This document shows positions 190 through 58,578 of a stretch of 64,000 nt of DNA, in pieces. A model generated the notes under the pieces. It did not search any database, had not been told where the DNA came from, and saw only the letters and a program-made list of their open reading frames with translations. This DNA is from an uncultured Acutalibacter sp. (lineage in GTDB: Bacteria; Bacillota; Clostridia; Oscillospirales; Acutalibacteraceae). The stretch lies in the NCBI GenBank assembly GCA_964602365.1, contig CAZRQD010000001.1:7944-71943 (forward strand), read 5' to 3'. The stretch's first letter is position 1; every line of letters begins with the position of its first letter. The translations under genes and the position numbers were made by a program.

Positions 190-1491
190 TCATTTTTTTG
201 TGATTATTTCTCCCCTCACAAAATCCTCCCCCGCCTCCGTAATCCTCACCGGGAGAATATCTCCGCAGACGGGGCAAGCGCTCTCGGCCCTCACCGGGGT
301 GTAGTTCTCGGTATATCCCGAATATATGCGATCGCATACCTTTCCTTCAAAGAGGACGTTTTCGGTCCTCCCTACCTGGGAGAGCATAAACTCTTTTCTG
401 GATTCCGCCCCCGCTTTTGCCATATGGCGCGCGCGCTCCTCCTTTACCGCCCTCGGAATCTGCCCGGGGGCGTTATACGCGGCGGTGCCGGGTCTGCGGG
501 AATATGGAAATACGTGGATTTTCGCGAACCCTATCCTCCTTACAAACTCCAGAGATTCGGCGAACTCCTCCTCAGTCTCCCCGGAAAATCCCACCATCAC
601 GTCAGTCGTAAGGGCGCACCCGGGGAAGACCTCTCTTAAGTCCTCGCAGATCTGCTCAAACTCGGCAGCGGTATACCGGCGGTTCATGCGTTTTAGGGTC
701 TCGTCGCACCCGCTTTGCAGGGAGAGGTGAAACTGCGGCATAAGCTTTTTCTGTCCGCTAAGCCTTGTTATGACCTCGGCGGTCAGCGCCTCCGGTTCAA
801 GAGAGCTAAGCCGCACGCGGCAAATCCCCCCGCAGGATGCGATCGCATCGATCGCATCGCAGAGGTCCAGTCCCAGGTCCTGCCCGTAGCACGGCAGGTT
901 TATGCCTGAGAGGACTACCTCCTTGTATCCGGCACCGGCCAGGGTCTCCCCCTCTTTTCTTATATCCTCCGGCGGCCTGGAGCGGACCCTCCCCCTTGCG
1001 TATGGTATTACGCAGTAGGAACAGAAGCGGTCGCATCCGTCCTCGATCTTGAGGAATGCCCTCGTTCTCCCGGAAAATTCAGAGATGGATAGCGGCTCAA
1101 ATTTCTCATCCTTCCCATGCGGTGAGATTAAAACCCTCCTCACGGGGTTTTGCAGGTACTCCAAAACGGCCCTCGCCAGCGCCTTGCGGTTGGAGGTCCC
1201 CAAGATGATGTCCGCCTCCTCTATCTCCTCTGCCCTATCCGGAAAGGCCTGCGGGAAACATCCGGTAAGCACCGCCGCCGCACCGGGGTTCTCCCTCTTC
1301 AGCCGCCGTAGGGCCGATCTCATCTTCCTGTCGCTTTCTGCGGTGACGGTGCAGGAATTGACCACCACCACGTCCGCGCTCTCCCCCTCTTTGGCGCTTG
1401 TAAAACCGGCCCGCTCCATCTCCTCCAGCATTGCCTGTGATTCGTACTGGTTGACCTTACACCCCAGGGTATAAAAACGCACCTTCATCAT
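190..1491 (-). CDS. mtaB: tRNA t6A37 methylthiotransferase MtaB (radical SAM, UPF0004 + TRAM)
   Basis: TLGCKVNQYES N-terminus, VVVNSCTVT, radical SAM CDRFCSYC motif, C-terminal TRAM-like domain. Confidence 0.9.
   Translation of the reverse strand: MMKVRFYTLGCKVNQYESQAMLEEMERAGFTSAKEGESADVVVVNSCTVTAESDRKMRSALRRLKRENPGAAAVLTGCFPQAFPDRAEEIEEADIILGTSNRKALARAVLEYLQNPVRRVLISPHGKDEKFEPLSISEFSGRTRAFLKIEDGCDRFCSYCVIPYARGRVRSRPPEDIRKEGETLAGAGYKEVVLSGINLPCYGQDLGLDLCDAIDAIASCGGICRVRLSSLEPEALTAEVITRLSGQKKLMPQFHLSLQSGCDETLKRMNRRYTAAEFEQICEDLREVFPGCALTTDVMVGFSGETEEEFAESLEFVRRIGFAKIHVFPYSRRPGTAAYNAPGQIPRAVKEERARHMAKAGAESRKEFMLSQVGRTENVLFEGKVCDRIYSGYTENYTPVRAESACPVCGDILPVRITEAGEDFVRGEIITKK
326..337. repeat. 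HIP1-like palindrome ATGCGATCGCAT, copy 1
   Basis: Exact 12-mer (extends to 14-bp TATGCGATCGCATA) inside mtaB, read as V-C-D-R-I. Confidence 0.85.
837..848. repeat. HIP1-like palindrome ATGCGATCGCAT, copy 2
   Basis: Exact 12-mer inside mtaB (D-A-I-A), followed directly by a partial copy CGATCGCAT at 849-857. Confidence 0.85.
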
Positions 1492-3407
1492 AAGTTCTCC
1501 GTCTCCTCGTTATCCAAAGCCTCAGAAAGCTCTCCCCACTCCTTCAGAAGCTCCTCTTCACGCTCCTTTAAGGTCTCCATCTCCGCACTTATCTCGCTTA
1601 AACGCTCATAGCTCGCGGATATCCCCTCATCTGAGAGGAGCAGCTCTCTCTCGCTTATCTCCCGCTCGTTTTCCTCAATTTTCTCCTCCAGTCTGCCAAG
1701 GGCTCCTCTCATCCTGCGGAGCCTCGACTCCCTCTCCTTGCGCAGTTTGTATTGACTTTCCGGTTTATGCGGCTCATTTTCGGATGCGATCGCATCATCC
1801 CGCTTCTCCAGATAGTAGTCGTAATTGCCAAGATAAAGTTTGGCTCCGCTTTCAGAGAGAAAATAGAGCTTGTCCGCCAGCTTATTTATAAGATACCTGT
1901 CGTGGGATACCACAAAGAGTGTGCCGTCGTATCCCAAAAGGGCGTCCTCCAGCGCCTGTGCGGAACTTATGTCCAGGTGGTTGGTCGGCTCATCCAGGAG
2001 GAGAAAGTTTGCCTTAGAGAGCATCAGCCTAAGCAGCAAAAGCCTTGCCCTCTCCCCTCCGGAGAGGGAACCCACCTGTTTAAACACGTCCTCCCCCTTA
2101 AACAGAAAAACCGCTAAAGCGCTTCTTATCTCGGTCTGCGTCATCTTTGGGTATAGATCCCAGATCTCGTCTATCACGGTCTCTTCATCGTGCAGGCTCA
2201 TCTGGTTCTGCTCGTAATACCCGGGCTCTACACCCGTGCCAAGTTTTACGGTCCCGGAGTCTGCCCGGTACTGTCCCAAAAGAATCTTCAGCAAGCTCGT
2301 CTTTCCGCACCCGTTGGGCCCTATCAGAAAGACCTTTTCTCCCCGCCTTATCTCCAAATTCACCCCGCTAAACAGGACCTTCCCGGAAAAGGATATACTC
2401 AGATCCCTGGCATTCAGCACCTCATCCCCGCTCCTGCGGCTGGCCTTAAACTTGAAGCGTATGCCCTCGGGGTCCTCCCCGGGCTTTACCAAAGAGGCGT
2501 TTAGTCTGTCCAAAGTATGCTGTTTGCTGGCTATTGTTCTGAAATTTCTCTCCTGCCCAAACTGCCTCTGCTGTTCGATCATCCCCTCCACCCGCTCTAT
2601 CTCCCTGCGGGTATTCTCATATACCCTCTCCTGCGCTATCCGCATCTCCTCCTTTAAAGAGAGGAACCTGGAATAATTCCCGCCATAGCTTTGCAGGCTG
2701 CCGTTCGTAATCTCAAAAGTCCGCTCCGTAACCCTGTCCAGAAAATACCTGTCGTGGCTCACCACGATATAGGCCCCGGGGAAATTTCTGAGGAAATCCT
2801 CCAGCCACTCCACAGAGCTTATGTCCAGATGGTTGGTCGGCTCGTCTAAAAGGAGAAGGTTCGCACCGCTTAAAAGCAGTTTCGCAAGCCCAAGTTTAGC
2901 CTTCTGCCCGCCGGAGAGCACCCCCACCAAACTGTTTATCTGCCCCTCTGAAAATCCCAGGCCGATAAGCGCACTCTTCACCCTCGCGCGGTAGGTAAGC
3001 CCGCCGGAATACTCAAACCTCTCCCTCAGCTCATCCTGCCGGGATATGAGGGCTTTCAGCCTCGCAGGGTCATCCTCTCTCCTTAGTCTGCGGTTTACCT
3101 CCTCAAGCTCCTCCTCCAACTCGATCAGCGGGGAAAATACCGTCATCACCTCGTCATAGGCGGTCTTCGCGAGATCTCTGCAGACGTGCTGCTCCATATA
3201 TCCCAGCTTTGCCTCCCGCCCGTAGGAGACAGAGCCCTTAGACGGCTCGTACTCTCCGGTCAAAACCTTTAGGAGAGTGGTCTTTCCGCTGCCGTTTGGG
3301 CCAACCAAACCTATATGTTCTGATTTTTGCATCTCGAAATTTATATTTTCAAGGATAAGTGCGTCGCCCAAATTCTGCGTGACGCCCCGCACCGTGAGAA
3401 TTGCCAC
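1488..3407 (-). CDS. ABC-F family ribosome-associated ATP-binding protein
   Basis: Two ABC cassettes (GPNGSGKTT...LSGGQ...LLLDEPTNHLD; GPNGCGKTS...LSGGE...DEPTNHLD), no TM segments, C-terminal coiled coil; GTG start. Confidence 0.92.
   Translation of the reverse strand: MAILTVRGVTQNLGDALILENINFEMQKSEHIGLVGPNGSGKTTLLKVLTGEYEPSKGSVSYGREAKLGYMEQHVCRDLAKTAYDEVMTVFSPLIELEEELEEVNRRLRREDDPARLKALISRQDELRERFEYSGGLTYRARVKSALIGLGFSEGQINSLVGVLSGGQKAKLGLAKLLLSGANLLLLDEPTNHLDISSVEWLEDFLRNFPGAYIVVSHDRYFLDRVTERTFEITNGSLQSYGGNYSRFLSLKEEMRIAQERVYENTRREIERVEGMIEQQRQFGQERNFRTIASKQHTLDRLNASLVKPGEDPEGIRFKFKASRRSGDEVLNARDLSISFSGKVLFSGVNLEIRRGEKVFLIGPNGCGKTSLLKILLGQYRADSGTVKLGTGVEPGYYEQNQMSLHDEETVIDEIWDLYPKMTQTEIRSALAVFLFKGEDVFKQVGSLSGGERARLLLLRLMLSKANFLLLDEPTNHLDISSAQALEDALLGYDGTLFVVSHDRYLINKLADKLYFLSESGAKLYLGNYDYYLEKRDDAIASENEPHKPESQYKLRKERESRLRRMRGALGRLEEKIEENEREISERELLLSDEGISASYERLSEISAEMETLKEREEELLKEWGELSEALDNEETENL
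1784..1795. repeat. HIP1-like palindrome ATGCGATCGCAT, copy 3
   Basis: Exact 12-mer inside the ABC-F gene (D-A-I-A-S). Confidence 0.85.
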
Positions 3408-3493
3408 GGGTCATTCCCCCTTTAGCCCTGACAGGGGTATTATATAGGAAAATATTCCTTCTGGCAAGTGGTAGAAATCCGCGAAAATTTTTC

Positions 3494-3522
3494 TTGACAT
3501 TTTTCCAAAACCGGTCTATACT
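3494..3522 (+). promoter_or_regulatory. sigmaA promoter of tRNA-Gly
   Basis: TTGACA (3494-3499), 17 nt, TATACT (3517-3522), 18 nt before the tRNA. Confidence 0.8.
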
Positions 3523-3540
3523 CTGGAAAGTAGATGACTT

Positions 3541-3614
3541 GCGGGCGTAGTTCAATGGCAGAACATCAGCTTCCCAAGCTGAATACGAGGGTTCGATTCC
3601 CTTCGCCCGCTCCA
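3541..3614 (+). tRNA. tRNA-Gly(CCC)
   Basis: GCGGGCGTAGTTCAATGG...CT-CCC-AA anticodon loop...GGTTCGATTCC...CCA; 74-nt cloverleaf. Confidence 0.97.
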
Positions 3615-3681
3615 GTTTAAGGTTCCAAACGCAGTCGGCGTTTTGGGGCCTTTGTTTTTCCATTTTTTGCCATTTTGGACT

Positions 3682-3714
3682 AAAAACCCCAGGGCATCTG
3701 CCCCGGGGAGTTTT
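3682..3714. terminator. Probable intrinsic terminator between convergent tRNA-Gly and pckG
   Basis: AAAACCCCAGGG-catctg-CCCCGGGGAGTTTT imperfect stem flanked by A and T tracts. Confidence 0.5.
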
Positions 3715-6345: not shown

Positions 6346-6350
6346 CAGCA

Positions 6351-6826: not shown

Positions 6827-7954
6827 ATGATGGAAAGGTATTTCGGAGAGAGTACGCCAAAACTGGGCTTTGGACTGATGAGGCTGCCAAAACTCAGCGA
6901 CGGGAGCATCGACGTCGAGCAGGTGAAAGAGATGGTAGATCTCTTTATGGGCGCCGGGCTTACGTATTTTGACACCGCCTACGTCTACGATAACGGCGAG
7001 AGCGAGAAGGCTGCAAAACTCGCGCTTGTTGACAGATACCCCAGGGAGAGCTATACCCTTGCCACGAAGCTCTGCGCGTGGATGGGAGATCCCACCGAGG
7101 AGGCGGCCAAGGGCCAGTTTTACACCAGCTTAGAGCGCACCGGCGCGGGATATTTCGACTATTACCTGCTCCACGCCATACAGCGCAACAACTATAAGGT
7201 ATACGACGATTTCCATATTTGGGATTTTGTCAAAGAGCAGAAGGAGAAAGGTCTCATAAAACATTACGGCTTCTCCTTCCATGCGGACCCGGAGCTTTTG
7301 GACGAGCTGCTGACCGCCCACCCCGACGTGGATTTTGTCCAGCTGCAGATTAACTATGCGGACTGGGATAATCCCGGCGTGCTTTCCAGGCAGTGCCTGG
7401 AGGTCGCCAAAAAACACGGCAAGTCAGTGACTGTCATGGAGCCGGTAAAGGGCGGCGCGCTTGCCAACCCCATAGAATCAGTGCAGAAGATATTCAAAGA
7501 GGCCAATCCAAAGGCATCCTGCGCCTCCTGGGCCATTCGCTTCGTCGCGAGCCAGGACAATATCATAACCGTCCTCTCCGGAATGTCTAACGTGGAGCAG
7601 ATGAAGGACAATATCTCCTATATGAAGGACTTCAAACCCATGACCGAGGAGGAGTTCAAGGTCATTGACAGGGCCAGGGCTGCCCTAAACGCAGACAAAT
7701 CCATCCCATGCACCGCCTGCCACTACTGTACGGAGAACTGCCCCATGCAGATACCGATCCCGGAGATCTTCCACGTGGTGAACCGCCAGGGGAATCAGCC
7801 CGCCTTCAGGGGGATAAGGGAGTACAATATCGCGACAGAGGGCAGAGGAAAGGCCTCCCAGTGCCTGCAGTGCGGCCAGTGCGAGGGTGCTTGCCCGCAG
7901 CATCTGCCAATTATCACTTACTTAAAAGAGGCAGCGGAGCGTTTCGAACAGTAA
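6827..7954 (+). CDS. Aldo/keto reductase with C-terminal 4Fe-4S dicluster domain
   Basis: LGFGLMRLP, YFDTAYVY, ATKL, YYLLH, GFSFH, VQLQINY, MEPVKGG; CTACHYCTENCP and CLQCGQCEGACP. Confidence 0.9.
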   Translation: MMERYFGESTPKLGFGLMRLPKLSDGSIDVEQVKEMVDLFMGAGLTYFDTAYVYDNGESEKAAKLALVDRYPRESYTLATKLCAWMGDPTEEAAKGQFYTSLERTGAGYFDYYLLHAIQRNNYKVYDDFHIWDFVKEQKEKGLIKHYGFSFHADPELLDELLTAHPDVDFVQLQINYADWDNPGVLSRQCLEVAKKHGKSVTVMEPVKGGALANPIESVQKIFKEANPKASCASWAIRFVASQDNIITVLSGMSNVEQMKDNISYMKDFKPMTEEEFKVIDRARAALNADKSIPCTACHYCTENCPMQIPIPEIFHVVNRQGNQPAFRGIREYNIATEGRGKASQCLQCGQCEGACPQHLPIITYLKEAAERFEQ

Positions 7955-12471: not shown

Positions 12472-14973
12472 TCAGACTTTCACGGATTTTGTCAGCTTTT
12501 CGGGCTCCTTATATGGCCTGACCAGAAGATAGATAATCGCAGCAAGCACCAGCGCGGCGAAGATAAGCCCAACCACGTTTACGCTTCCGGTAAACAGCAG
12601 CCCGAACTGGTTTATGATGAGTGCGATCGCATACGCGAAAGCGCATTGATATCCTATGGCGAAGAGAGTCCATTTAAGGCTGTTCATCTCTCTCTTTATC
12701 GCGCCCATGGCGGCGAAGCACGGCGCGCAGAGCAGGTTAAACGCCAAGAAGGAATAGCCGCTTACCATGGTAAAAGCCGCGCCGAGATTGCCGTATACTG
12801 TACCGGCGCCGCCGTAGAGGATTCCCATGGTACCGACGATGTTCTCTTTGGCGACAAGGCCAGTGATGGATGCCACGGCAGCCTGCCAGTTCCCCCAGCC
12901 AAGCGGGATGAAGATCCATGCGATCGCATTCCCTATCATGGCAAGGATGGAGTGGTCGATCTGCTCGTCTGTCAGCATGGTGAACGCGCCGTCCACAAAG
13001 CCAAAATAGGTCGTGAACCATACCAGTATGGTGGAGAGCAGGATTATGGTCCCAGCCTTCTTTATAAAGGACCAGCCGCGCTCCCACATGGAGCGGAGAA
13101 CATTCCCGGCCGTGGGCCAGTGATATGCGGGCAGCTCCATGACGAAGGGAGCGGGATCTCCCGCGAAAATCTTGGTCTTTTTCAGTATTATGCCCGATAC
13201 GATAATCGCACCGACGCCCAGGAAGTACGCGGACGGAGCTATCCACGGAGAGCCGCCGAATATTGCTCCGGCTATCATCGCGATAAAGGGGAGCTTCGCG
13301 CCGCAGGGGATAAAGGTGGTGGTCATGACGGTCATGCGGCGGTCTCTCTCGTTTTCTATCGTGCGGGAGGCCATAATTCCCGGAACGCCGCAGCCCGAGC
13401 CTATAAGCATGGGGATGAAGGATTTGCCGGAAAGCCCGAACTTCCTAAATATCCTGTCCATGACAAAGGCAACCCTCGCCATATATCCGCAGCTCTCAAG
13501 AAACGCCAGGAAGAAGAACAGTATGAACATCTGCGGGACAAACCCCAAAACGGCGCCGACACCGGCGACTATGCCGTCCAGAATCAGACCTTTTAGCCAT
13601 TCCGCACAGCCAATAGCGTCAAGGCCGCGCTCTATCAGCGGGGGAAGTCCGGGGACCCAAATACCGTAGCCGGCAGGGTCGGGCTCTGCCGCGCCGTAAG
13701 TCTCATAGACCCCAACCGCATTCTTTAAATCAGTCCCGGTAAATGTGAGCTCCTCTTCAAGCTGCGTATCCTCGTCAGTCATTACAAGGAATGTCGCAGA
13801 GTCGCTGTCAGAGAAATTCCCTGCATAGTCAGAGAGGGCGGAAACTGCCGCATCAGAGGAGAAGCTCTCGCTTTCCGTATCAAGAGCATCTACAACCGCT
13901 CCCGTATCCATGCCGTTTTCCTCTCCGTATGCGATGAAGGCGTTTACGGCGTTTTGGGCGTCGGCGAATTCACCGGCAGCCTCTTCATACGCTCCCCGCC
14001 CTATGCCCAGCAGGTACCAGCCGTCGCCGAAGACGCCGTCGTTCGCCCAGTCTGTGGCAACGGTTCCAACCGTTGTGACCGAAACGTAATATACCACGAA
14101 CATCACAATGGCGAAAATCGGCAGGGCGAGAATGCGGTTTGTCACAACCTTATCTATCTTGTCGGAGATTGTCAAGGCGCCCGCGGATTTCTTCCTGTAG
14201 CAGCCCTTTAGAATGGAGGCGATATACACGTACCTCTCGTTTGTGATAATGCTCTCGGCGTCGTCGTCCAGCTCTTCCTCCGCGGCCTTTATGTCCTGCT
14301 CTATATGCTTTAGAACTGACTCGTCAAGGTGAAGCTGCTCTATAACCTTGTCGTCGCGCTCGAATATCTTGATGGCGTACCAGCGCTGGCGCTCGGGCGG
14401 GGAATCATGCAGGGCCGCCTCCTCTATATGCGCTATGGCATGTTCCACCACGCCGGAGAAGGTGTGCATCGGCACGGTCTTATCCGTCTTGGCAGCCTCT
14501 ATCGCAGTCTCGGCCGCCTGCATCACTCCGGTACCCTTCAGGGCCGAAATCTCCAGCACCCGGCAGCCCAGCTCCCTTGAGAGTTCTGCAGTATTTATGC
14601 TGTCCCCGTTCTTTTTTACTATGTCCATCATATTGATGGCGACAACGACGGGAATTCCCAGCTCTGTCAGCTGCGTGGTGAGATAGAGGTTTCTCTCCAA
14701 GTTCGAGCCGTCCACGATATTGAGAATCACGTCCGGCCTCTCGTTTATCAGGTAGTTTCTCGCGATAACCTCCTCCAGGGTATAGGGGGAAAGGGAATAT
14801 ATGCCGGGCAGGTCCGTGATAGTGACTCCATCATGCTTTTTCAGCTTGCCCTCCTTCTTCTCCACGGTCACCCCTGGCCAGTTTCCAACAAACTGGTTGG
14901 AACCGGTAAGGGCATTGAACAGGGTGGTTTTGCCGCTGTTGGGGTTCCCCGCGAGGGCAATCTTCATTTCCAT
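12472..14973 (-). CDS. feoB: Ferrous iron transporter FeoB (long form with acidic loop insertion)
   Basis: GNPNSGKTT, GNWPGVTVEKKEG, DLPGIYSL, NMMD G4 motif, gate domains (PCGAKLP, LLCAPCFA). Confidence 0.97.
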   Translation of the reverse strand: MEMKIALAGNPNSGKTTLFNALTGSNQFVGNWPGVTVEKKEGKLKKHDGVTITDLPGIYSLSPYTLEEVIARNYLINERPDVILNIVDGSNLERNLYLTTQLTELGIPVVVAINMMDIVKKNGDSINTAELSRELGCRVLEISALKGTGVMQAAETAIEAAKTDKTVPMHTFSGVVEHAIAHIEEAALHDSPPERQRWYAIKIFERDDKVIEQLHLDESVLKHIEQDIKAAEEELDDDAESIITNERYVYIASILKGCYRKKSAGALTISDKIDKVVTNRILALPIFAIVMFVVYYVSVTTVGTVATDWANDGVFGDGWYLLGIGRGAYEEAAGEFADAQNAVNAFIAYGEENGMDTGAVVDALDTESESFSSDAAVSALSDYAGNFSDSDSATFLVMTDEDTQLEEELTFTGTDLKNAVGVYETYGAAEPDPAGYGIWVPGLPPLIERGLDAIGCAEWLKGLILDGIVAGVGAVLGFVPQMFILFFFLAFLESCGYMARVAFVMDRIFRKFGLSGKSFIPMLIGSGCGVPGIMASRTIENERDRRMTVMTTTFIPCGAKLPFIAMIAGAIFGGSPWIAPSAYFLGVGAIIVSGIILKKTKIFAGDPAPFVMELPAYHWPTAGNVLRSMWERGWSFIKKAGTIILLSTILVWFTTYFGFVDGAFTMLTDEQIDHSILAMIGNAIAWIFIPLGWGNWQAAVASITGLVAKENIVGTMGILYGGAGTVYGNLGAAFTMVSGYSFLAFNLLCAPCFAAMGAIKREMNSLKWTLFAIGYQCAFAYAIALIINQFGLLFTGSVNVVGLIFAALVLAAIIYLLVRPYKEPEKLTKSVKV
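12621..12632. repeat. HIP1-like palindrome, 1-mismatch copy GTGCGATCGCAT
   Basis: Inside feoB (Y-A-I-A-L); inner 10-mer TGCGATCGCA intact. Confidence 0.8.
12918..12929. repeat. HIP1-like palindrome ATGCGATCGCAT, copy 4
   Basis: Exact 12-mer inside feoB (N-A-I-A-W). Confidence 0.85.
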
Positions 14974-19650: not shown

Positions 19651-19722
19651 TTCGCCTCTGGCATAAAACTTCAGAATAGACAGTTCTTTTTTGATTAGAT
19701 CACGAGTGTGAGGAGGGACTTT

Positions 19723-21609
19723 ATGGGGAAGATTTTAGAGGGGATAGTTTCTCCTGAGGACATAAAGAGCCTCAGCGAAGAACAGCTTACGGGGCTTTGC
19801 GACGAGATAAGGCAGACCATCATAGAGACCGTCTCCTGCAACGGCGGGCACCTCGCCTCTAACCTCGGCGTGGTAGAGCTTACCGTGGCTCTTCTTCTGG
19901 CGTTCGAGCCTGGGAAGGACAGCATTATCTGGGACGTTGGCCACCAAAGCTACCCGTATAAACTCCTTACCGGCCGATACCCAAAGTTTTCCACCATCCG
20001 CAAAGAAGACGGCATTTCCGGGTTTCCCAACAGAAACGAGAGTCCCTACGACCTCTTCACAACGGGCCACAGCAGCACCTCCATCTCCCAGGCCCTGGGG
20101 ATCTCAGAGTCAAACAGAATCCTGGGAAAGGACGGCCATGTCGTGGCAGTCATAGGGGACGGAGCCCTGACGGGCGGGCTCGCGTATGAGGGGCTGAACA
20201 ACGCCGGTAGGCTTCACAGAAATCTCATAGTCGTCCTAAACGATAATAATATGTCCATCTCCAAAAACGTGGGCTCGATAGCGGGCTATCTCACCCGCCT
20301 GCGCACAAAGCCCGGCTATATCCGCACGAAGCTGAACGTTGAGGCCTTGCTCAAGAAAATCCCCAAAATTGGCGTTGCCGTCGCGGAGGCCCTTAGAAAG
20401 ATAAAAGACAGAATAAAGAGGGCGTTTTATAAATCCACTCTCTTTGAGGATTTCGGACTCAACTACTACGGGCCGTTTGACGGCCATAATATCACCCAGC
20501 TGAGGAGGGCATTCGAGAGCGCCAAGCTTGTCAAGGGTCCCGTGCTGATCCACGTCTGCACCTCAAAGGGAAAGGGCTACCGCTATGCCGAGATGGACCC
20601 CAGCATCTACCACGGGCTCTCAGGCTTTGATGTCCCCACCGGCAACACCGGGGAACGCTCCCCAAGCTTCTCCGACATATTCGGAGAGGAGCTCTGCAAA
20701 ATAGCGGAAGACGAGCCTCGCGTCTGCGCCATCACCGCCGCCATGCAGGACGGGACCGGGCTCTCCGCCTTCCACGAGAAATTCCCGGACCGTTTCTTCG
20801 ACGTCGGCATAGCCGAGGAGCATGCCGTGACCTTTTCCGGCGGGCTTGCGCGCGGGGGGCTGATACCGGTTTTCGCGGTATACTCCTCTTTTTTGCAGCG
20901 CACCTATGACGAACTCATCCACGACGTCGCCCTTCAGAGGACGAAGGTCGTACTGGCGGTAGACAGGGCGGGGGTTGTCGGGGAGGACGGCATAACGCAC
21001 CAAGGGCTTCTGGACGTCTCGCTGTTGAGGACGGTGCCCGGTGCGACAGTCTACTCTCCGGCAGGGTACGAGGAACTTCGGCTTGACCTGAGATATCTCA
21101 TAGAAAAATGCGATCGCATCTGCGCGGTGCGCTACCCCAGGGGAAAAGAGATATATCTTCCCCCGGACTTCACCCCCAGCACAGAGCCGTATACCCTATA
21201 CGGCGACCCAAAAGCTCCGGTCTGCATTGTCACCTACGGGCGGCTGTTCTCCTTTGCCTCGCAGGCCAGAATAGAGCTTGCGGAGAGAGGAATAGAGGCC
21301 TCTGTTCTAAAACTCAACCGCATCATCCCCCTTGATGAGAACGCCGTGAGGAGCGTCCTAGACTGCGAGAGCCTCTTCTTCTTCGAGGAGGGGACGGAGA
21401 GCGGCGGCGTGGGAGAGCAGTTCCTGTTATGCTTAGAAGAGTCCGGCTTTAAAGGAGATGTCAGCTTGAGGGCGGTGAAGGACCCGTTTCTTGCGCACGC
21501 CCCGATGTTCCGCACACTGGAGAAGCTAGGCCTAAACACTGAGGGCATGGTGGGGCTCATCCTCTCCTCCCTTCCCGTGAGCGAGGAAACCCGTGCGAAA
21601 AAGGCTTGA
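19723..21609 (+). CDS. dxs: 1-deoxy-D-xylulose-5-phosphate synthase
   Basis: GGHLASNLGVVELT, WDVGHQSY, GHSSTSIS, GDGALTGG...LNDNNMSI, DVGIAEEHA; start moved to ATG 19723 behind GAGGAGG. Confidence 0.97.
   Translation: MGKILEGIVSPEDIKSLSEEQLTGLCDEIRQTIIETVSCNGGHLASNLGVVELTVALLLAFEPGKDSIIWDVGHQSYPYKLLTGRYPKFSTIRKEDGISGFPNRNESPYDLFTTGHSSTSISQALGISESNRILGKDGHVVAVIGDGALTGGLAYEGLNNAGRLHRNLIVVLNDNNMSISKNVGSIAGYLTRLRTKPGYIRTKLNVEALLKKIPKIGVAVAEALRKIKDRIKRAFYKSTLFEDFGLNYYGPFDGHNITQLRRAFESAKLVKGPVLIHVCTSKGKGYRYAEMDPSIYHGLSGFDVPTGNTGERSPSFSDIFGEELCKIAEDEPRVCAITAAMQDGTGLSAFHEKFPDRFFDVGIAEEHAVTFSGGLARGGLIPVFAVYSSFLQRTYDELIHDVALQRTKVVLAVDRAGVVGEDGITHQGLLDVSLLRTVPGATVYSPAGYEELRLDLRYLIEKCDRICAVRYPRGKEIYLPPDFTPSTEPYTLYGDPKAPVCIVTYGRLFSFASQARIELAERGIEASVLKLNRIIPLDENAVRSVLDCESLFFFEEGTESGGVGEQFLLCLEESGFKGDVSLRAVKDPFLAHAPMFRTLEKLGLNTEGMVGLILSSLPVSEETRAKKA
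21108..21119. repeat. HIP1-like palindrome ATGCGATCGCAT, copy 5
   Basis: Exact 12-mer inside dxs, read as K-C-D-R-I-C. Confidence 0.85.
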
Positions 21610-22414: not shown

Positions 22415-23230
22415 GTGAAGATAGCTCTGCTCTCAAGCGGGACTGACCTCGCGCTCGAACTGGAAAGAGATATTAAAGAGCTTTTAAAGGCCTGCGACAT
22501 ATTAGATGTAAGTTTAGGTGAAAGCGGCTCCCCTCTGTGGAAAGAAACTGCCGCGTCATGCGATTGCATCCTTGCGGTGGGAGGGGACGGAACCATTATA
22601 CGCGCCGCCAAGCTTGCCGCCTCTCTTGACATACCGGTTCTGGGGATAAATGCCGGAAACCTGGGCTTTAATGCGGCACTTGAAAGGGACGAGCTTCCTC
22701 TTTTAAAAAACCTGGTTTTAGGGAAATATGAGGAGGAGAGGCGCCTCATGCTCAAGGTGGAGCTGAATTCTGTTGGGAAGGCCTCGGCCTATTGCGCCCT
22801 AAACGAGGCGGTGGTCTCCGGTGAGCTGGCCAGACTGATAAGCTATGACCTCGTTTTGGGAAACGGAAAATCTTTCCGCTTTAAGGGGGACGGTTTTCTG
22901 GTCTCCACCCCTACGGGCTCTACGGCATATTCCCTCTCCGCCGGGGGACCGGTGGTGGAACCCGCCCTAAAATGCCTCATCTATACCCCAATCTGCCCGC
23001 ACGCCTTTTTTAACCGCAGCCTTGTCTTTGGCGGTGATATGTCCCTAATGGTGACACTCCCGAAAAACCCTGGGCAGGTCTGCCTCACCGTTGACGGGGA
23101 GACCCCGGTCCCGCTGAGGGAGGGGGACCGGCTGAGGTTTTCCCGGTCCCGCAGGGAGGCAAGATTTCTCAAGATCAAGGACAAGGGCTTTTTTGAAGTT
23201 TTGGACAATAAGCTTATAAACTCCAGGTAG
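22415..23230 (+). CDS. nadK: NAD kinase
   Basis: VGGDGTI, GINAGNLGF, LNEAV, DGFLVSTPTGSTAYSLSAGGP. Confidence 0.95.
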   Translation: MKIALLSSGTDLALELERDIKELLKACDILDVSLGESGSPLWKETAASCDCILAVGGDGTIIRAAKLAASLDIPVLGINAGNLGFNAALERDELPLLKNLVLGKYEEERRLMLKVELNSVGKASAYCALNEAVVSGELARLISYDLVLGNGKSFRFKGDGFLVSTPTGSTAYSLSAGGPVVEPALKCLIYTPICPHAFFNRSLVFGGDMSLMVTLPKNPGQVCLTVDGETPVPLREGDRLRFSRSRREARFLKIKDKGFFEVLDNKLINSR

Positions 23231-31187: not shown

Positions 31188-32633
31188 ATGCATGATGGAT
31201 CTGTGAAAAAGGCGGTCTGTGTTTTTGTCGCAGTGGCCCTCGTTTTTGTGCCGCTCCTCTTCATAACGGGAAATATAGCCCAGGGGAGAGAGGGCGATAT
31301 TCCTCCCCCGGACCAGGGACCTCCCAGCTCCTCGACCTACCAAGAACAGAATACCGGTACCGCCCCCCAAACAAAAGGGGACCCGTTCGGATCTTCCGGG
31401 AGCCATGGGGCGTATGTCTCCCGCACGGATACCTTTGCCCCCGATGAGAGCCTGACCAGGGGCGAGACCGCGCTGATAATCTACAACCTTCTAAACGACA
31501 AGACGGCGAACTCTGCCATCTCCTTTTATGACGTATCCCAAGGTGACTGGTATTATGACGCCGTGAGAACTCTCGTCTCGGCGGGGGCTGTGTCGGGATA
31601 CCCCGACGGCGGATTCCACCCGGGGAACTACGTGACGAGAGCTGAGTTTGTGAGTATCGTCTCCAGATTTTTTGATATACCCTCCGGCGTGTGGTCGGGC
31701 TTCCCCGACGTGGATAACGGCCACTGGGCGAGGGATGCGATCGCATACGCCAAAACGCAAAACTGGGTCAGCGGATACCCGAACGGGAACTTCGGTCCAA
31801 ACGACCTGGTCACACGCGCTGAGGCCGTGGCGATCCTAAACAGGGTTGCGAACCGCAGACCTGACAGGGCATATATCGACGCGCAGGGAAAACCCATGAG
31901 GTTCGTGGACGTTCCCCCAACAAACTGGGCGTATTATGATATAATGGAGGCGACAGTCGGGCACTCTGCCGCGGGCAGCGGGGACGGAGAGAGCTGGACG
32001 CAGAGCCCGCTTGGAACTTCACCGCAAACCTCCGGCGACTACAGGATCATCGACGGGGAGCTGTACAAGACTGACGGGAATGGGAACTTCCTCACGAATG
32101 TTCAGGACGGTTTCCTCTATTTTGGCGCGGACGGACGGTATACCACCGGAGACGCGGTTCTGGACGGAAAGCTCTCCCAAATTGTGAGATACTGCGCCGT
32201 AAACGGGGAGGGCAGGGACCAGACCTTCAGAAACCTCTACAGATATGTCTGTGCGAACTACCATTATATAGGGAGGGGTCTTCTTACCGAGGGCACGACC
32301 GGGTTCGAAAACGGTATGGCCCTGCAGATGATAGACACCGGCGGCGGGAACTGCTATAATTTTGCTGCGCTTACCGCGCTCCTTGCGAGAAAGGCGGGGT
32401 ACCAGGCGAAAGCCGTTGCTGGAACCGTACTCCTGCCGTGGAACACCGGCTATATCTCCCACGCGTGGACCGAAGTGACGATAGACGGGGTCACGTATAT
32501 CTGCGATTCCCAGCAGGAAAATAACGCCCCGAACCGAGGCTATAGCTGGGACATCTTCCTAAAGCGGTATGACGAGATCCCGCCTGATAGCGTGATGCCG
32601 CATTATATGCTGTTTGGGCAAAAGCTGAACTGA
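31188..32633 (+). CDS. SLH-domain protein with C-terminal transglutaminase-like domain (paralog 1)
   Basis: Signal/TM; SLH repeats (GYPDGGFHPGNYVTRAEF, GYPNGNFGPNDLVTRAEA); GNCYNFA, HAWTEV, ICDSQ triad. Confidence 0.88.
   Translation: MHDGSVKKAVCVFVAVALVFVPLLFITGNIAQGREGDIPPPDQGPPSSSTYQEQNTGTAPQTKGDPFGSSGSHGAYVSRTDTFAPDESLTRGETALIIYNLLNDKTANSAISFYDVSQGDWYYDAVRTLVSAGAVSGYPDGGFHPGNYVTRAEFVSIVSRFFDIPSGVWSGFPDVDNGHWARDAIAYAKTQNWVSGYPNGNFGPNDLVTRAEAVAILNRVANRRPDRAYIDAQGKPMRFVDVPPTNWAYYDIMEATVGHSAAGSGDGESWTQSPLGTSPQTSGDYRIIDGELYKTDGNGNFLTNVQDGFLYFGADGRYTTGDAVLDGKLSQIVRYCAVNGEGRDQTFRNLYRYVCANYHYIGRGLLTEGTTGFENGMALQMIDTGGGNCYNFAALTALLARKAGYQAKAVAGTVLLPWNTGYISHAWTEVTIDGVTYICDSQQENNAPNRGYSWDIFLKRYDEIPPDSVMPHYMLFGQKLN
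31735..31746. repeat. HIP1-like palindrome ATGCGATCGCAT, copy 6
   Basis: Exact 12-mer in an SLH repeat (R-D-A-I-A-Y). Confidence 0.85.
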
Positions 32634-32664: not shown

Positions 32665-34107
32665 TTGAAAAAGACGATTTCACTCCTGCTGGTTCTGTGT
32701 CTGCTTCTTCTGTTCTCTGTTCCTGCGTTCGCAACCGTACTGCCCCCGGACTATTTGGGAGCTACCACCTATACCCACTACCCCTACGTCTCCCGCGGGG
32801 ATACCTTTGGCCCCGACGAGAGTTTGACCAGGGCAGAGACCGCAAACATGATCTATGTTCTCATGGCGCCGTCTACCCCAAACGGATATACGGTCTCCTT
32901 CTCGGATGTCAACCCCGGGGACTGGTATTATGACAGCGTCATGGCGCTTGCGGCCGCGGGCGCGGTCTCCGGTTATCCCGACGGCAGGTTCGGCCCGGGG
33001 GATTACGTGACGAGGGCCCAGTTTGTGAAAATCATATCCAGCTTTTTTGATATACCCCGCGGGGTTAGCTCTGGTTTCCCGGATGTTGGGGACAGCCACT
33101 GGGCAAGGGATGCGATCGCATACGCGAGGTCGTACGGCTGGATAAGCGGATATCCGAACGGAAACTTCGGTCCAAACGACCTGGTCACACGTGCTGAGGC
33201 TGTCACGATTCTCAACAAGGTCTCCGGCAGGAAGGTGGACAGGGCGTATATAGACTCTCTTGGAGGGTATGCAAAATTTTCTGACGTTCCGCAAAGCCAC
33301 TGGGCGTATTACGAGATAATGGAGGCGACGGTGGAGCACAGCTTCACCTCAGGCGGGGACGGCGAGAGCTGGAAGAGCAGTTCTCTGCCCGCGCAGCAGG
33401 CGGCGCCCACACCGACGCCGGCGCCGACAGCTACCCCTGCGCCGAGTAATGAGATCATCCCGCCACCGGATCAGTTTTTCGGGCCGACTCAGCAGGTCGC
33501 TGCGGGCTACCGGATAATTGACGGGGACCTCTATAAAGTTGACAGCTACGGCAATTACTATAAAAATTATCAGGACGGGGTCCTCTATTTTGGCGCCGAC
33601 GGGCGCTATACCAGCGGAGACGCCGAACTTGACGCGATTCTCAAGAATATAGTGGTCTCGCTGTACTCCGCCGCGGACAGCATGGAGACCAACCTGAAAC
33701 GGCTCTATGACCATGTATGCTGGAATTACTCCTATCTCGCAAGGATGCCGTACCCCGCGGACGGCTCCACCGGGTGGGACCTTCAGTGGGCGAAGCAGAT
33801 GGTGCAGACGGGCAAGGGGAACTGCTACTCCTACGCGGCGCTCTTCTCCATGCTGGCGAGAAGGCTGGGATACCAGGCGTGGGCGGTCTCAGGGTTTATA
33901 AATGTCAGTACTGTCAGGACCTTCGAATACCACGGCTGGGTGGAGATCAGCCAAAACGGAAAGATCTATGTCTGCGACCCGGAAATACAGGCGTATTATT
34001 CTGTGAGGGTCGGAAGAAATTGGAGCCTGTTCATGTTTGAGTATATGAGAAATTCCTTCCCGGATTACTACCCCGAATATATGGTAGCCGGACAGGTCAA
34101 GCCTTAA
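32665..34107 (+). CDS. SLH-domain protein with C-terminal transglutaminase-like domain (paralog 2)
   Basis: Signal peptide, SLH repeats, PT-rich linker, GNCYSYA, HGWVEI, VCDPE triad; TTG start. Confidence 0.88.
   Translation: MKKTISLLLVLCLLLLFSVPAFATVLPPDYLGATTYTHYPYVSRGDTFGPDESLTRAETANMIYVLMAPSTPNGYTVSFSDVNPGDWYYDSVMALAAAGAVSGYPDGRFGPGDYVTRAQFVKIISSFFDIPRGVSSGFPDVGDSHWARDAIAYARSYGWISGYPNGNFGPNDLVTRAEAVTILNKVSGRKVDRAYIDSLGGYAKFSDVPQSHWAYYEIMEATVEHSFTSGGDGESWKSSSLPAQQAAPTPTPAPTATPAPSNEIIPPPDQFFGPTQQVAAGYRIIDGDLYKVDSYGNYYKNYQDGVLYFGADGRYTSGDAELDAILKNIVVSLYSAADSMETNLKRLYDHVCWNYSYLARMPYPADGSTGWDLQWAKQMVQTGKGNCYSYAALFSMLARRLGYQAWAVSGFINVSTVRTFEYHGWVEISQNGKIYVCDPEIQAYYSVRVGRNWSLFMFEYMRNSFPDYYPEYMVAGQVKP
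33110..33121. repeat. HIP1-like palindrome ATGCGATCGCAT, copy 7
   Basis: Exact 12-mer at the position paralogous to copy 6 (not independent). Confidence 0.85.
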
Positions 34108-48859: not shown

Positions 48860-49387
48860 ATGCAAAATCCTATTGTCACATTTGAGACCAGCCGCGGCAT
48901 CATGAGGGCCGAGCTCTACCCTGACATCGCGCCAAATACCGTTTGCAACTTCATTTCTCTTGTAAAATCCGGATTCTACGACGGAACCATCTTTCACCGC
49001 GTCATCCCGGGATTTATGATCCAGGGCGGGGACCCGGACGGCACTGGCATGGGAGGTCCGGGATACAGCATAAAAGGGGAGTTCAGCCAAAACGGTTTTA
49101 AAAACGACTTAAAGCACAAAAGGGGCGTTCTCTCCATGGCCCGCTCCTCAATGCCGGATAGCGCGGGCTCGCAGTTTTTTATCATGGTGGCGGACGCCCC
49201 GCATCTTGACGGAGCCTATGCCGCCTTTGGAAAACTGATAGAGGGAGAGGACGTCGCGGATGCGATCGTATCCGCAAAGAGGAACCGCGCCGACAGGCCC
49301 TACGAGGACCAGGTAATGCAGAGGGTCACCGTGGAGACCTTTGGTGCGGAGTACCCCGAACCGGAAAAACTGCGTGTGCGCAGATAA
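48860..49387 (+). CDS. ppiB: Cyclophilin-type peptidyl-prolyl isomerase
   Basis: APNTVCNF, FHRVIPGFMIQGGDP, SMAR, SAGSQFFI, HLDGAYAAFG. Confidence 0.93.
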   Translation: MQNPIVTFETSRGIMRAELYPDIAPNTVCNFISLVKSGFYDGTIFHRVIPGFMIQGGDPDGTGMGGPGYSIKGEFSQNGFKNDLKHKRGVLSMARSSMPDSAGSQFFIMVADAPHLDGAYAAFGKLIEGEDVADAIVSAKRNRADRPYEDQVMQRVTVETFGAEYPEPEKLRVRR

Positions 49388-55125: not shown

Positions 55126-55136
55126 CTCAATTCTCC

Positions 55137-55826
55137 CTACGGTGCCATCGCCACAACAATCTGGTCCAGCGCATCTATCTGGTTTAGGTCAAGCTGAAGC
55201 TCCCCGTCCACCGTCCGCAGGATATTCAGCTCCACGCTCTTTACCTCAGAGCCATAGGATATCTGCCCTATAACCCTCTCACAGTAGGAGACGACCTTCT
55301 CGGCGAAGATCTCGTTTACGTCCACCGGCTCATTTCCCGCACCGGACTCATCCTTAAGCCTATCCGCGGCCTCGGTCTGGGCCTCCTGCCTCATCTTCTC
55401 TATCTCCCCCGTGATATTGGCGAAATTGTTGACGGGATTTACCTGCACCTCAACCGAATAGCCGCTTTCCTCATCCTGCTCCTCAACCACGGTATACCGC
55501 GTCGCGGAGTAGGCCCAGCCCATCACGGTCTCCAGCCTCTGCATCTGCTCATCGTTTGGTGCGACGGTATGCAAATTGCAAAATCTGACGGCGGCGTTCT
55601 CCAGGGTAATGTCGTTATTCATCTGCGCTTCCTCCTCGCTTAGCCCCGAGATCTCCATAAGCTTCGCGTGGTCGCCCTTATAGCTGCTGTCAAGGAAAGC
55701 CTGGATATACTCTGAGACGTCAAATTCTGAAAATCCCGGCTTTGGTATCTCGCACCCCGCGAAAACCAGAACAGCGGAAAAAGCCAGCACCACTAAGGTC
55801 AGCAAAATATTTTTCGCCTTCACCAT
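55137..55826 (-). CDS. Hypothetical lipoprotein
   Basis: Lipobox FAG-C; acidic; 10 nt after secA with RBS AAGGGGG. Confidence 0.78.
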   Translation of the reverse strand: MVKAKNILLTLVVLAFSAVLVFAGCEIPKPGFSEFDVSEYIQAFLDSSYKGDHAKLMEISGLSEEEAQMNNDITLENAAVRFCNLHTVAPNDEQMQRLETVMGWAYSATRYTVVEEQDEESGYSVEVQVNPVNNFANITGEIEKMRQEAQTEAADRLKDESGAGNEPVDVNEIFAEKVVSYCERVIGQISYGSEVKSVELNILRTVDGELQLDLNQIDALDQIVVAMAP

Positions 55827-55836
55827 AAAGTCCCCC

Positions 55837-58578
55837 TTACGCGTATCTGCCGCAGCAATTTTTATACTTCTTCCCGCTGCCGCAGGGGCAGGGGTCGTTT
55901 CTTCCGGGCTTTTTTTGTTTTCTTACGGGCTGCTTCTTGGTCTGCTGGGGCCCGCCGGCAGTCACGTCTTTCGCGGCGGATTCCCTCTTTGGCGCCTCTC
56001 TCCTCACAAGTCTCACGGTGAGGATCATCCTGGCGGTATTCTCCCGGATAGTCCGGTTCATCGCGTCAAACATCTCAGAGCTCTCTATGCGGTACGCCAC
56101 CACAGGGTCCTGCTGGGCATACGCCCTAAGTCTGATTCCCTCTTTAAGCTGCTCCATCGCATCTATATGGTCCATCCACTCCCTGTCCACATTCTGCAGC
56201 AGGATGGCCCTCTCAAGCTCCCTCATCACAGGAGGGGTGAATTCCTCCTCCCTCTTTTCGTAGAGAGCGTAAGCCTTTTCGGTAAGCTCTTTCACGACGG
56301 CGGAGGGTTCAAGCTCCTCCAGCTCTGCCTTGCTGAACCTAAGGTCGTTCTCCCCCGTAAGCCAGCCCTGGTACTGCTCTCTTAGGCCGTTTATGTCCCA
56401 GTCGTCATGCGGGGTATTCTCAGGCAGGTATGTGGATACGTTTGATGCGATCGCATCCTCTATCATCTTCTGTATCTTGGATTTGAGATTCTCCCCCGCA
56501 AGTACCATATCCCTCTCGCGGTAGATGGTCTCCCTCTGCATATTCATCACGTCGTCATACTGCAGGACGTTTTTCCTTATGGCGAAGTTCCTGCCCTCTA
56601 CCCTCTTCTGCGCCCCCTCTATAGAGCTTGAGACCATGGACGCCTCTATCGGCATATTGTCCTCTATCTTTAGCCGGTCCATCAGGCCAGATATCTTCTC
56701 CCCGCCAAACAGCCGCATGAGGTCGTCCTCCAAAGAGAGGTAGAACCGGCTCATGCCGGGGTCCCCCTGCCTGCCGGCGCGCCCTCGCAGCTGGTTATCA
56801 ATTCTTCTGGATTCATGTCTCTCCGTTCCTATTATATAGAGGCCGCCAAGCGCCTTTACCTCTTCGGCCTCGGGGGCTATCTGCTCCCTGTACTTCTGGT
56901 TTAAAGCCCTAAACTCCCCCCTGGCCTTCAAGATCTCCTCGTCCTCCGTATGGCTGAAGGCTGAGGCCTCTGCCAACAGCTCCTCAGAGTATCCCTCTCT
57001 CCTCATCTCGGCCTTAGCCATAAATTCAGAGTTGCCGCCAAGCATGATGTCAGTGCCGCGGCCCGCCATATTCGTGGCGATGGTCACCGCACCTTTGCGG
57101 CCGGCCTGCGCGATGATCTGCGCCTCCTTTTCATGGTACTTGGCGTTTAGCACCTCGTGCTTAATACCCTTCGCCTTTAGCATTTTAGAGAGCCTCTCGG
57201 ACTTGTCTATCGTCACGGTACCCACAAGCACCGGCTGCCCCTTGGCGTGGTGTTCGACTATATCGTCTATGACGGCGTTATATTTTGCCAGCTCTGTCTT
57301 ATAGACCACGTCGGGGTAGTCCTCACGGATCATCGGTCTGTTCGTGGGGACCTCCACCACATCCAGGCGGTAGATCTCTGAAAACTCCTCCTCCTCGGTC
57401 ATGGCCGTACCGGTCATTCCTGAGAGCTTTTTGTAGAGCCTGAAATAATTCTGGAACGTGATAGTTGCCAAAGTCCTGGACTCTCTCGCGACAGTAACTC
57501 CCTCCTTGGCCTCAATAGCCTGGTGAAGGCCCTCGTTATATCTCCTGCCGTACATGAGGCGGCCTGTGAACTCGTCAACGATAATCACCTCGCCGTCCTT
57601 TACTACGTAGTCCTGGTCCCTGTGCATTATACCCCAAGCTTTGATCGCCTGGTTCACGTGGTGCTGGATGTTTATATTGTCCGGGTCGGTGAGGTTATCT
57701 ATCCCGAAATACTCCTCTGCCCTCTTCACGCCCCTCTCTGTAAGAGAGCAGGTTTTCAGCTTCTCGTTGACTATATAGTCATAGTCCTTATAGAGCTGGT
57801 CGTTATCCTCCTTTTCGTCCGTCTCCTTTACCTTGATAAACTTCATGCCTCTGGCAAGGTTATTCGCCCTGTCATAGAGGTCGTCAGCCTTCTCTCCTCT
57901 TCCGGAGATTATCAGCGGGGTCCTCGCCTCGTCTATCAGGATGGAGTCAACCTCGTCCACGATGGCGTAGTTCTGTCCGCGCTGGACTTTCTGGTCTGCA
58001 TAGGCGACCATATTATCTCTCAGATAGTCAAAGCCCATCTCGTTATTCGTCCCGTAGGTTATATCGGCGGCATAGGCGGCTCTCTTTTCCCTAGGGTCCA
58101 TTCCGCTTAGGGCAAGCCCCACTGAAAGCCCCATGAAGTTGAAGACCCTCGCCATCATCTCGCCCTGATATTTCGCAAGATATTCGTTGACCGTCACCAC
58201 GTGGACGCCCTTGCCCGTAAGCGCGTTCAGATAGGCAGGCAGGGCAAGGGTATAGGTTTTGCCCTCGCCGGTCTTCATCTCGGCTATCCTGCCCTGGTGC
58301 AGGATCACGCCGCCCTCCACCTGCACAGGAAAAAGCCTTATGGACAGGACCCTGTCCATCGCCTCCCTGCAGGCGGCAAAGGCCTCGGGCAGGATATCCT
58401 CCATGGTCTCCCCCGCCGCAAGCCTCTGCTTAAAGCGCGGCGTCTCGGCCTTTAACTCCTCGTCGCTCTTTTTGCGGTACTCCTCCTCAAGCCCGAGGAT
58501 CTTCTTCACCGTGGGCTCTATTCTTTTAAGTTCCCTCTTGCTGTAGCTTCCAAAAAATTTTGTGAGAATATTTGCCAT
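55837..58578 (-). CDS. secA: Preprotein translocase subunit SecA
   Basis: [49 protein letters not shown]-terminal [13 protein letters not shown]. Confidence 0.98.
56445..56456. repeat. HIP1-like palindrome ATGCGATCGCAT, copy 8
   Basis: Exact 12-mer inside secA (D-A-I-A-S). Confidence 0.85.

Follow-up and report, generated by a model that had tools for sequence, protein, structure and literature searches.

A 12-bp palindrome, ATGCGATCGCAT, is a DNA-level recognition word of one species lineage, an uncultured Acutalibacter sp. of the Clostridia, and was built there by point substitutions; coding constraints set where those substitutions could settle. The word was noticed in a stretch of 64,000 nucleotides, referred to here as the window, which spans positions 7944-71943 of contig C1 (CAZRQD010000001.1) of assembly GCA_964602365.1. 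The assembly is a metagenome bin of 80 unordered contigs and 1.43 Mb at 52.6% GC, and genes were called with our own simple open reading frame (ORF) model (coding fraction 0.90). An earlier reading of the window from its letters alone (the sequence-only reading) had called the word HIP1-like, after the highly iterated palindrome of cyanobacteria, and had put the GC content of the window at about 55%; the measured value is 53.6%.

Within the window we found eight exact copies, at 326, 837, 1784, 12918, 21108, 31735, 33110 and 56445, where dinucleotide shuffles predict 0.01. All eight positions, as well as that of the one-letter variant GTGCGATCGCAT at 12621, were as the sequence-only reading had them. 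In the whole assembly, ATGCGATCGCAT is the most frequent 12-mer, with 58 copies spread over 23 contigs (41 per Mb, or 1 per 25 kb). Order-3 and order-5 Markov simulations produced 0 copies, and the 47 copies in coding DNA exceed those in 200 synonymous-codon shuffles, which average 0.6 copies and never pass 4. Most exact copies (81%) are intragenic, in mutually unrelated host genes, and are read in three frames: 36 as xAIAx, 10 as xCDRx and 1 as MRSH, with the other 11 intergenic. Placement inside genes and in two frames, as described by the sequence-only reading, thus holds for the window but not for the genome, which adds the third frame and intergenic copies and arrays.

The word has also left an imprint on the proteome. 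Pentapeptides of the form [NDHY]AIA[FSYCLW] number 48 against 6.5 expected from composition, a 7-fold excess, and 36 of them are encoded by exactly ATGCGATCGCAT; the same is true of 10 of the 12 compatible xCDR[IM] peptides. CDR[IM] occurs 12 times (1.8 expected), compared with a single occurrence of the control CDK[IM] (1.7 expected). Extrapolated from the permissive A-I-A frame, the density would be about 84 copies per Mb, near that of intergenic DNA (about 79 per Mb, from 11 copies over about 140 kb). Since copies occupy three frames and intergenic DNA, exceed the synonymous-shuffle null and are accompanied by an excess of peptides that orthologs do not share, the pressure is on the DNA and not on the peptide, and about 50 peptides have been reshaped by it. 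The sequence-only reading had argued for such DNA-level selection or drive from the recurrent use of the same codons in the window, and the genome-wide, codon-aware count, which is not confined to one frame, bears it out.

Variation within the word is concentrated at its centre, a feature that the sequence-only reading missed, as it did the second word class described below. In addition to the 58 exact copies, the assembly contains about 80 variants, and 45 of the 62 one-letter variants fall in the central four bases; where all other letters match, positions 2-4 do not vary and positions 9-11 hold two variants in total. The frame ATGC-N4-GCAT occurs 158 times, compared with about 20 for each other spacer length, with GATC (58), CATC/GATG (21), GATT/AATC (14) and GTTC/GAAC (12) as its commonest centres. 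Genic centre variants (A-M-A, A-N-A, A-F-A, C-D-G and C-E-R) are explained by the amino acid, as Met, Asn, Phe, Gly and Glu forbid GATC at that place. Among the 256 symmetric frames made of a tetranucleotide, four free bases and its reverse complement, only ATGC (7.5-fold) and ATAC (3.2-fold, 56 copies) were enriched, the latter defining a second word class, ATAC-N4-GTAT. The HIP1 octamer GCGATCGC has 76 copies (53 per Mb), 58 of them inside the 12-mer; outside the 12-mer family it occurs 19 times against 8-15 expected, and CGATCG occurs 69 times against 77-150 expected. Because the flanks are nearly invariant, the centre is tolerant, and neither GCGATCGC nor CGATCG is enriched outside the 12-mer, the unit is a 12-mer with critical outer tetranucleotides and not the HIP1 octamer.

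We compared 14 genic sites with 80 related loci and with a 580 kb contig of the congener G004, setting aside a few ortholog alignments with an indel at the word and a fifteenth site, C16:21159. The relatives were Oscillospirales bins from gut and rumen that carry labels such as Acutalibacteraceae, Neglectibacter and Fimenecus, and their MtaB proteins reach 62-68% identity at best. At none of the 14 sites does an ortholog carry ATGCGATCGCAT; the corresponding 12-mers match it at 3.5-9 of 12 letters, and the alignments kept show no indel at the word. The peptide itself is altered at 13 sites, for example from EAVAL to DAIAL, from KCDSV to KCDRI and from NAMAY to NAIAY, while at C53:620 (HAIAS) the word was made by three synonymous changes alone. 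At site 326 in mtaB, about 80 orthologs have unrelated residues without an indel; at site 837 in the same gene, orthologs read E-A-A-C-x, with 3-5 of 12 letters matching; and at the dxs site 21108, the G004 ortholog reads Q-G-T-G-L, with 4 of 12 matching. The sequence-only reading had looked to relatives for orthologous positions that keep the peptide and lose the motif, a pattern that failed to appear, since the relatives lack the peptide too. As the aligned ortholog sites lack both the word and an indel, the copies arose by substitution, in many cases non-synonymous but conservative.

Other strains of the species keep the word. Three further sequencing runs yielded Logan contigs with 98.5-98.8% identity to C1, and these three independent strain assemblies retain all six sites (four exact, including the copy at 1784, and two variant) in the shared 11-14 kb; they also show one further exact copy past the contig end. 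An origin of the copies by insertion or as a library-junction artefact was ruled out by the agreement of the three assemblies and by the indel-free alignments at the 14 sites.

Beyond the species, none of the other 57 members of the genus (genomes of 1.5-4.3 Mb) has a copy, and sixteen families of the same order have 0 or 1, so that the lineage-specific word suspected by the sequence-only reading is borne out. The ATGC-N4-GCAT frame likewise reaches 110 per Mb in this species compared with 3.5-16 per Mb in relatives. Among 5.8 billion proteins there was no MtaB relative at 68-99% identity, and because of this gap the species is an isolated long branch. It is also a reduced lineage, with the smallest genome (1.43 Mb, 100% estimated completeness) of the 58 species in the genus. 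A candidate parallel word in G004, ATGCGTAAGCAT, was rejected because it belongs to a dispersed repeat of about 100 nt and is not free-standing; in loci L084-L094 of that genome, ATGCGTAAGCAT and ATGCGTTAGCAT recur together in the repeat, with a GC-rich hairpin just upstream, and form a separate repeat family.

The word also clusters. Gaps of at most 600 bp between neighboring sites number 10 against 1.3 expected, and we identified at least nine clusters, mostly intergenic tandem arrays of the 10-bp unit AT-RCSATSGY, with spacings of 10, 19-20, 29-30 and 39 bp. The 12-mer equals one such unit plus the AT of the next. The largest array, between csoR and copA (C4:29363-29685), alternates ATGC-N4-GCAT (A) and ATAC-N4-GTAT (B) words with a 39-bp period. 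Another, ATACCATCGTATACCGTGGTATACCAACGTATACCATGGTAT, at C5:428-469, repeats the 10-bp unit, and further arrays of the unit with mixed word classes lie at C4:50016-50126, C6:8256-8413, C29:1919-1978 and C30:4466-4775. Three of these arrays are broken by 100-N scaffold gaps, so their real length may differ, and apart from three arrays, no enrichment of arrays was seen at contig ends or scaffold gaps. No array-like sequence was matched in phage or plasmid collections, and a known RNA family at the arrays was ruled out, as Rfam gave no match.

Most arrays sit between co-directional genes of unrelated function (recO, a D-Ala-D-Ala carboxypeptidase gene, dapL, pfp and ychF). Of the 11 single intergenic exact copies, nine are in 3' regions, mostly 4-22 nt past a stop codon; on C10, a MarR gene is preceded by two exact copies, at distances of 129 and 188 nt. 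With 81% of exact copies inside genes and 9 of 11 intergenic ones in 3' regions, the placement is non-transcriptional.

Sites are unevenly spread over the assembly. Contigs without any site (allowing one mismatch) total 550 kb against 319 kb expected, which was seen in 0 of 20,000 simulations (p<5e-5); about 40% of the assembly is free of sites, and ten contigs of 20-45 kb, about 300 kb together, carry none. A chimeric bin was ruled out as the cause: word-free and word-bearing contigs share the same REP-like species-specific repeats and the same avoidance of GGATCC and CTCGAG, which argues for one organism, and site density is uncorrelated with the first principal component of composition (PC1). 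Recent import of the word-free contigs was also ruled out, as marker identities to congeners are alike in both classes. Marker proteins of the word-free contigs C8, C9, C11 and C24 adjoin each other in three congeners. In G004:C4, cumulative GC skew peaks near 320 kb, at the replication terminus, and the blocks syntenic to 240-445 kb of that contig are mainly word-free contigs (C36, C8, C35, C24, C9, C19 and C63). Around this terminus, sites number 4.5 per 100 kb, compared with 14.9 elsewhere (binomial p about 0.01, with post hoc boundaries).

We consider it possible, if short of probable, that a symmetric, probably dimeric and sequence-specific DNA-binding protein docks at ATGCGATCGCAT and acts at the level of the chromosome, outside transcription. 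Such a protein would read the outer ATGC and GCAT, with a GATC centre preferred but not required, and could bind cooperatively at clustered sites and at the 10-bp phased intergenic arrays; ATACCATGGTAT would be bound by the same protein or via a second specificity. It may mark word-rich versus word-free domains, like SlmA at SlmA-binding sites (SBS) or Noc at Noc-binding sites (NBS). This reading draws on the DNA-level pressure, on critical flanks around a permissive centre that resemble a binding site, on local clustering, non-transcriptional placement and patchy distribution, and on a copy number and word length that agree with those of SlmA and Noc sites. Of the three roles offered by the sequence-only reading, a chromosome-organizing site fits best, while the uptake tag is weakened in that no type IV pilus ATPase was found, and methylation-directed drive by the tolerant centre, the unenriched octamer and the lack of a GATC or CGATCG methyltransferase in the assembly.

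Several observations count against a docking site. Exact copies dominate (58 against 62 one-letter variants), as is typical of the drive-maintained uptake signal sequences (USS), DNA uptake sequences (DUS) and HIP1, whereas protein-binding sites are usually degenerate. Mixed ATGC..GTAT forms are near background, although a homodimer should accept mixed half-sites. No reader protein was identified in the assembly, in which TetR-type candidates were not surveyed, and its single ParB has its own canonical parS, hence no Noc paralog is present. The MarR protein encoded beside the site pair on C10 was rejected as a species-specific reader, as orthologs exist in 24 of 24 congeners searched, all without the word. 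The regional pattern is also imperfect: four sites, on blocks from C1, C17 and C52, fall among the word-free blocks near the terminus (338-358 kb), and few sites are seen on C2, the origin contig, as well. Mapped on the order of a relative, site depletion at the terminus is therefore suggestive only.

The origin region, at C2:25198-52441 and C4:5575, contains dnaN, parB and parS-like sites; DnaN, and likewise DprA, BrxL, PglZ and ComEA below, were named by reading the sequence or from simple motifs, and not by family search. C2 and C4 carry five such parS-like sites (TGTTTCACGTGAAACA, with no more than one mismatch). A role of ATGCGATCGCAT itself as a parS or ParB loading site was ruled out, given the canonical parS near parB and an origin contig poor in the 12-mer.

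We also entertain the more far-reaching idea, doubtful as it is, that the 12-bp palindrome, the second word class and the phased arrays form a genome-wide address system that would be read by a protein unrelated to Noc or SlmA and would divide the chromosome into domains, or else that they reflect a sequence-directed mutational drive that works without methylation or a pilus. An address system of this kind would have evolved within one genome-reduced species lineage.

An unlikely alternative is a self tag under molecular drive, in which word-bearing DNA is preferentially taken up or recombined and spreads by biased replacement, as for Neisseria DUS, Pasteurellaceae USS or HIP1 where the latter has recently been read as an uptake or Chi-like signal. 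Such a tag would explain the dominance of exact copies and the proteome imprint, and the similar densities of the A-I-A frame and of intergenic DNA fit a uniform pressure filtered only by coding. Findlay and Redfield reportedly found in 2009 that USS show frame bias and altered peptides at weakly conserved positions, much as seen here. ComEC is present (Pfam), and ComEA-like and DprA-like proteins were recognized by motif and by eye. HIP1, moreover, raises transformation in cyanobacteria (bioRxiv 10.1101/2024.09.10.611283; PMC13756078). Set against these points, no T2SSE/ComGA/PilB ATPase scored above the cut-off in the assembly, compared with 13 of 14 control genomes, and no prepilin-like N-termini were found in it. 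Known uptake sequences occur roughly once per kb, next to which one copy per 25 kb is sparse. The patchy distribution also speaks against a tag, as do the phased tandem arrays, which are not known as a DUS or USS trait, and the restriction of the word to one species instead of a genus or family.

We regard as less credible, and improbable overall, a methylation-linked process of the HIP1 type, in which a methyltransferase specific for GATC, CGATCG or the 12-mer acts together with a methyl-directed repair bias. The word does contain GCGATCGC, CGATCG and GATC, some cyanobacteria have extended HIP1 forms, TGCGATCGCA among them (PMC4390886), GATC is the favored centre even between genes (11 of 24), and the commonest intergenic variants, GATT/AATC, are C-to-T changes. 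Yet the commonest variant overall is a G-to-C transversion and not a deamination product, the ATAC-N4-GTAT class has no GATC, and GCGATCGC and CGATCG are not enriched outside the 12-mer. The presumed target, the centre, is moreover the least conserved part of the word, the reverse of HIP1 (PMC4390886). The sequence-only reading had pointed to GATC/CGATCG methyltransferases, and we found none in the assembly: PF00145, PF02086 and PF01555 gave nothing above cut-off in the 80-contig bin, while control genomes scored, and no Dam-type, N4/N6 beta-class or C5 methyltransferase was detected.

The sole DNA methylase in the assembly is the PglX of a bacteriophage exclusion (BREX) cluster. This type 1 remnant or cluster, at C30:6068-16131, encodes a BrxL-like Lon protease and PglZ (by eye) and runs off the contig end; its PglX is spread over two ORFs, separated by the insertion of two small genes. 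The assembly also bears a restriction-avoidance signature, with 15 copies of GGATCC against about 590 expected (ratio 0.03; none on C1) and depletion of CTCGAG (0.16) and GTCGAC (0.27), and we found no methyltransferase in the bin that matches the GGATCC avoidance. Metagenome bins often lose mobile restriction-modification (R-M) genes, and such genes may be missing here. Because GGATCC is avoided without a matching methylase and bins often lose R-M genes, the missing enzyme is weak evidence against methylation.

An ordinary large regulon, with ATGCGATCGCAT as operator for a transcription factor such as CsoR or the site-adjacent MarR, is very unlikely. The largest array does lie between csoR and copA, words of the second class end in ATACC..GGTAT much like CsoR boxes, and two exact copies precede the MarR gene. 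The intragenic and 3' placement of the word, away from promoters, the functionally unrelated neighbors of the arrays and the MarR orthologs of congeners without the word all oppose it.

Still less probable is a structure-forming hairpin in single-stranded DNA or RNA that is read by an HUH-type or RNA-binding protein, in the manner of repetitive extragenic palindromic (REP) elements and bacterial interspersed mosaic elements (BIME). Enrichment of ATGC..GCAT and ATAC..GTAT with mixed forms near background amounts to symmetric co-variation of the flanks, the centre (the would-be loop) is free to vary, and arrays of alternating word types resemble BIME architecture. General stem covariation and a hairpin were ruled out, however: only 2 of 256 possible complementary stems are enriched, folding gains no more than -2 kcal/mol for the A-type hairpin and fails for the B type, and G-U-compatible mixed forms are not favored. 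REP elements, in addition, are not known to originate by substitution within genes, and Rfam lists nothing at the arrays.

That the word is artefactual, or a side effect of conserved peptides or gene families, can be dismissed for practical purposes, since two paralogous window copies and one variant cluster in a repetitive protein (C13:376-583) weigh little against sites reproduced in independent assemblies, on 23 contigs, in three frames, between genes and in unrelated host genes, with a synonymous-shuffle null of 0.6.

The host genes and frames of the window sites were as the sequence-only reading described them, including the A-I-A and C-D-R-I readings. On the minus strand, mtaB (190-1491) holds exact copies at 326-337 (read C-D-R-I) and 837-848 (D-A-I-A-S), the ABC-F ATPase gene (1488-3407) one at 1784-1795 (D-A-I-A-S), and secA (55837-58578) one at 56445-56456 (D-A-I-A-S); feoB (12472-14973), on the same strand, has both GTGCGATCGCAT at 12621-12632 (Y-A-I-A-L) and an exact copy at 12918-12929 (N-A-I-A-W). 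On the plus strand, the word is found in dxs (19708-21609) at 21108-21119 (C-D-R-I) and in two SLH/transglutaminase-like genes, at 31735-31746 (D-A-I-A-Y) in the first (31188-32633) and at 33110-33121 in the second (32665-34107). As already recognized, the two SLH copies occupy paralogous positions (WARDAIAYAKT and WARDAIAYARS), and the copy at 33110 is not independent of that at 31735. The earlier inventory is correct in what it lists but overlooked three variants: the centre variant ATGCGATTGCAT at 22558-22569 in gene 22415-23230 (C-D-C-I), the one-letter variant ATGCGATCGTAT at 49260-49271 in gene 48860-49387 (D-A-I-V-S) and the centre variant ATGCCATCGCAT (plus-strand form) at 59184-59195 in gene 58717-59556 (D-A-M-A-W), where the Met codon blocks a perfect word.

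Other repeats were observed in the same assembly. An unannotated ORF at C13:1-900 encodes the repetitive protein mentioned above (..QTMQSHE..), every repeat of which contains ATGCAATCGCAT. One sequence, GGNCACGAAAACCCCGTTTTAGCCT, is common to the beginning of C13 and the end of C17 (29900-29974) and is probably a repeat at which the assembly broke. A second dispersed repeat family, comprising AAACCCAGGCCTTT, AACCCAAAAAACCC, AAGCCGAGAGAAGT and GGGTTTTTCTCC with 12-20 copies each, occurs on C1 (in the window), C4, C6, C21, C25, C27, C35, C49, C65 and C75, and probably corresponds to the 78-bp hairpin arrays that had been noted at window positions 7954 and 25764.

Genome-wide iterated words, among them HIP1, DUS, USS, SBS and NBS, offer a rare view of proteins that read whole chromosomes, and the purpose of HIP1 is still debated after 30 years. 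The present case is a clean one, combining a long word, a chance expectation of almost nil, a small genome and a countable protein imprint (about 50 peptides). The word is evolutionarily young, being confined to 1 of the 58 species in its genus, and the usual confounders, methyltransferases and competence pili, appear to be missing, which makes this a tractable system for the creation and reading of such words. A further lesson is that the presence of GCGATCGC does not by itself make a word HIP1. A literature search for ATGCGATCGCAT brought up only cloning primers and the extended HIP1 forms of Elhai.

The closest parallels are sites of the nucleoid-occlusion type. The SBS of E. coli SlmA (GTGAGTACTCAC) is a 12-bp palindrome with 52 sites, none of them in promoters or the Ter domain (PMC3020112), and the NBS of Bacillus subtilis Noc number about 70 and are absent from the terminus (PMC4331003). 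Like them, ATGCGATCGCAT belongs to the 12-16 bp palindromes that occur in tens of copies, mostly intragenic and off promoters (PMC3020112, PMC4331003), with critical and tolerant positions and with part of the chromosome free of sites. It differs in being dominated by exact copies where SBS and NBS are degenerate, in its restriction to one species, in whose assembly neither a SlmA-like nor a Noc-like reader was identified, and in its 10-bp tandem arrays, which are not described for SBS or NBS; for ATGCGATCGCAT, a link to the terminus is only suggestive.

The HIP1-like label given by the sequence-only reading captures some of the likeness and does not hold as a classification. Both are palindromes containing GCGATCGC that spread by substitution and occur in all frames beyond codon-aware nulls (PMC4390886, PMC5861425), and extended forms of HIP1 are known. 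HIP1, however, reaches 300-2700 per Mb with observed/expected ratios of 55-228 (PMC4390886), so that the 41 per Mb of ATGCGATCGCAT is 7-65 times lower, and the octamer alone is unenriched here. One-letter deviations in HIP1 are biased to the first and last letters (PMC4390886, Elhai 2015), in contrast to the central variation of ATGCGATCGCAT. HIP1 is also phylum-wide, whereas ATGCGATCGCAT is species-specific in a member of the Clostridia whose assembly yielded no GATC/CGATCG methyltransferase.

Known DUS and USS are non-palindromic, are evenly spread at about one per kb, extend over whole genera or families and require type IV pili. Compared with them, ATGCGATCGCAT is similar as a lineage-specific word in the 9-12 bp range with exact-copy dominance, frame bias, a proteome imprint and an intergenic density about twice the coding density. 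It is unlike them in being palindromic, in its density of 1 per 25 kb, in its patchiness, in its restriction to one species and in a host in which no pilus ATPase or prepilin was found. From REP and BIME, which are extragenic imperfect palindromes with stable hairpins that spread by transposition, it differs in being mostly intragenic, made by substitution, and weakly folding at best. Candidate palindromes of narrow lineages, likewise written into genes and spacers, have been noted in other phyla, namely a 16-mer in Nonlabens, TTTACATGTAAA in Sulfurospirillum and AGGCCT in nanohaloarchaea. Most of those would be shared by a genus, whereas ATGCGATCGCAT is limited to one species and is accompanied by phased arrays and by a second class of words.

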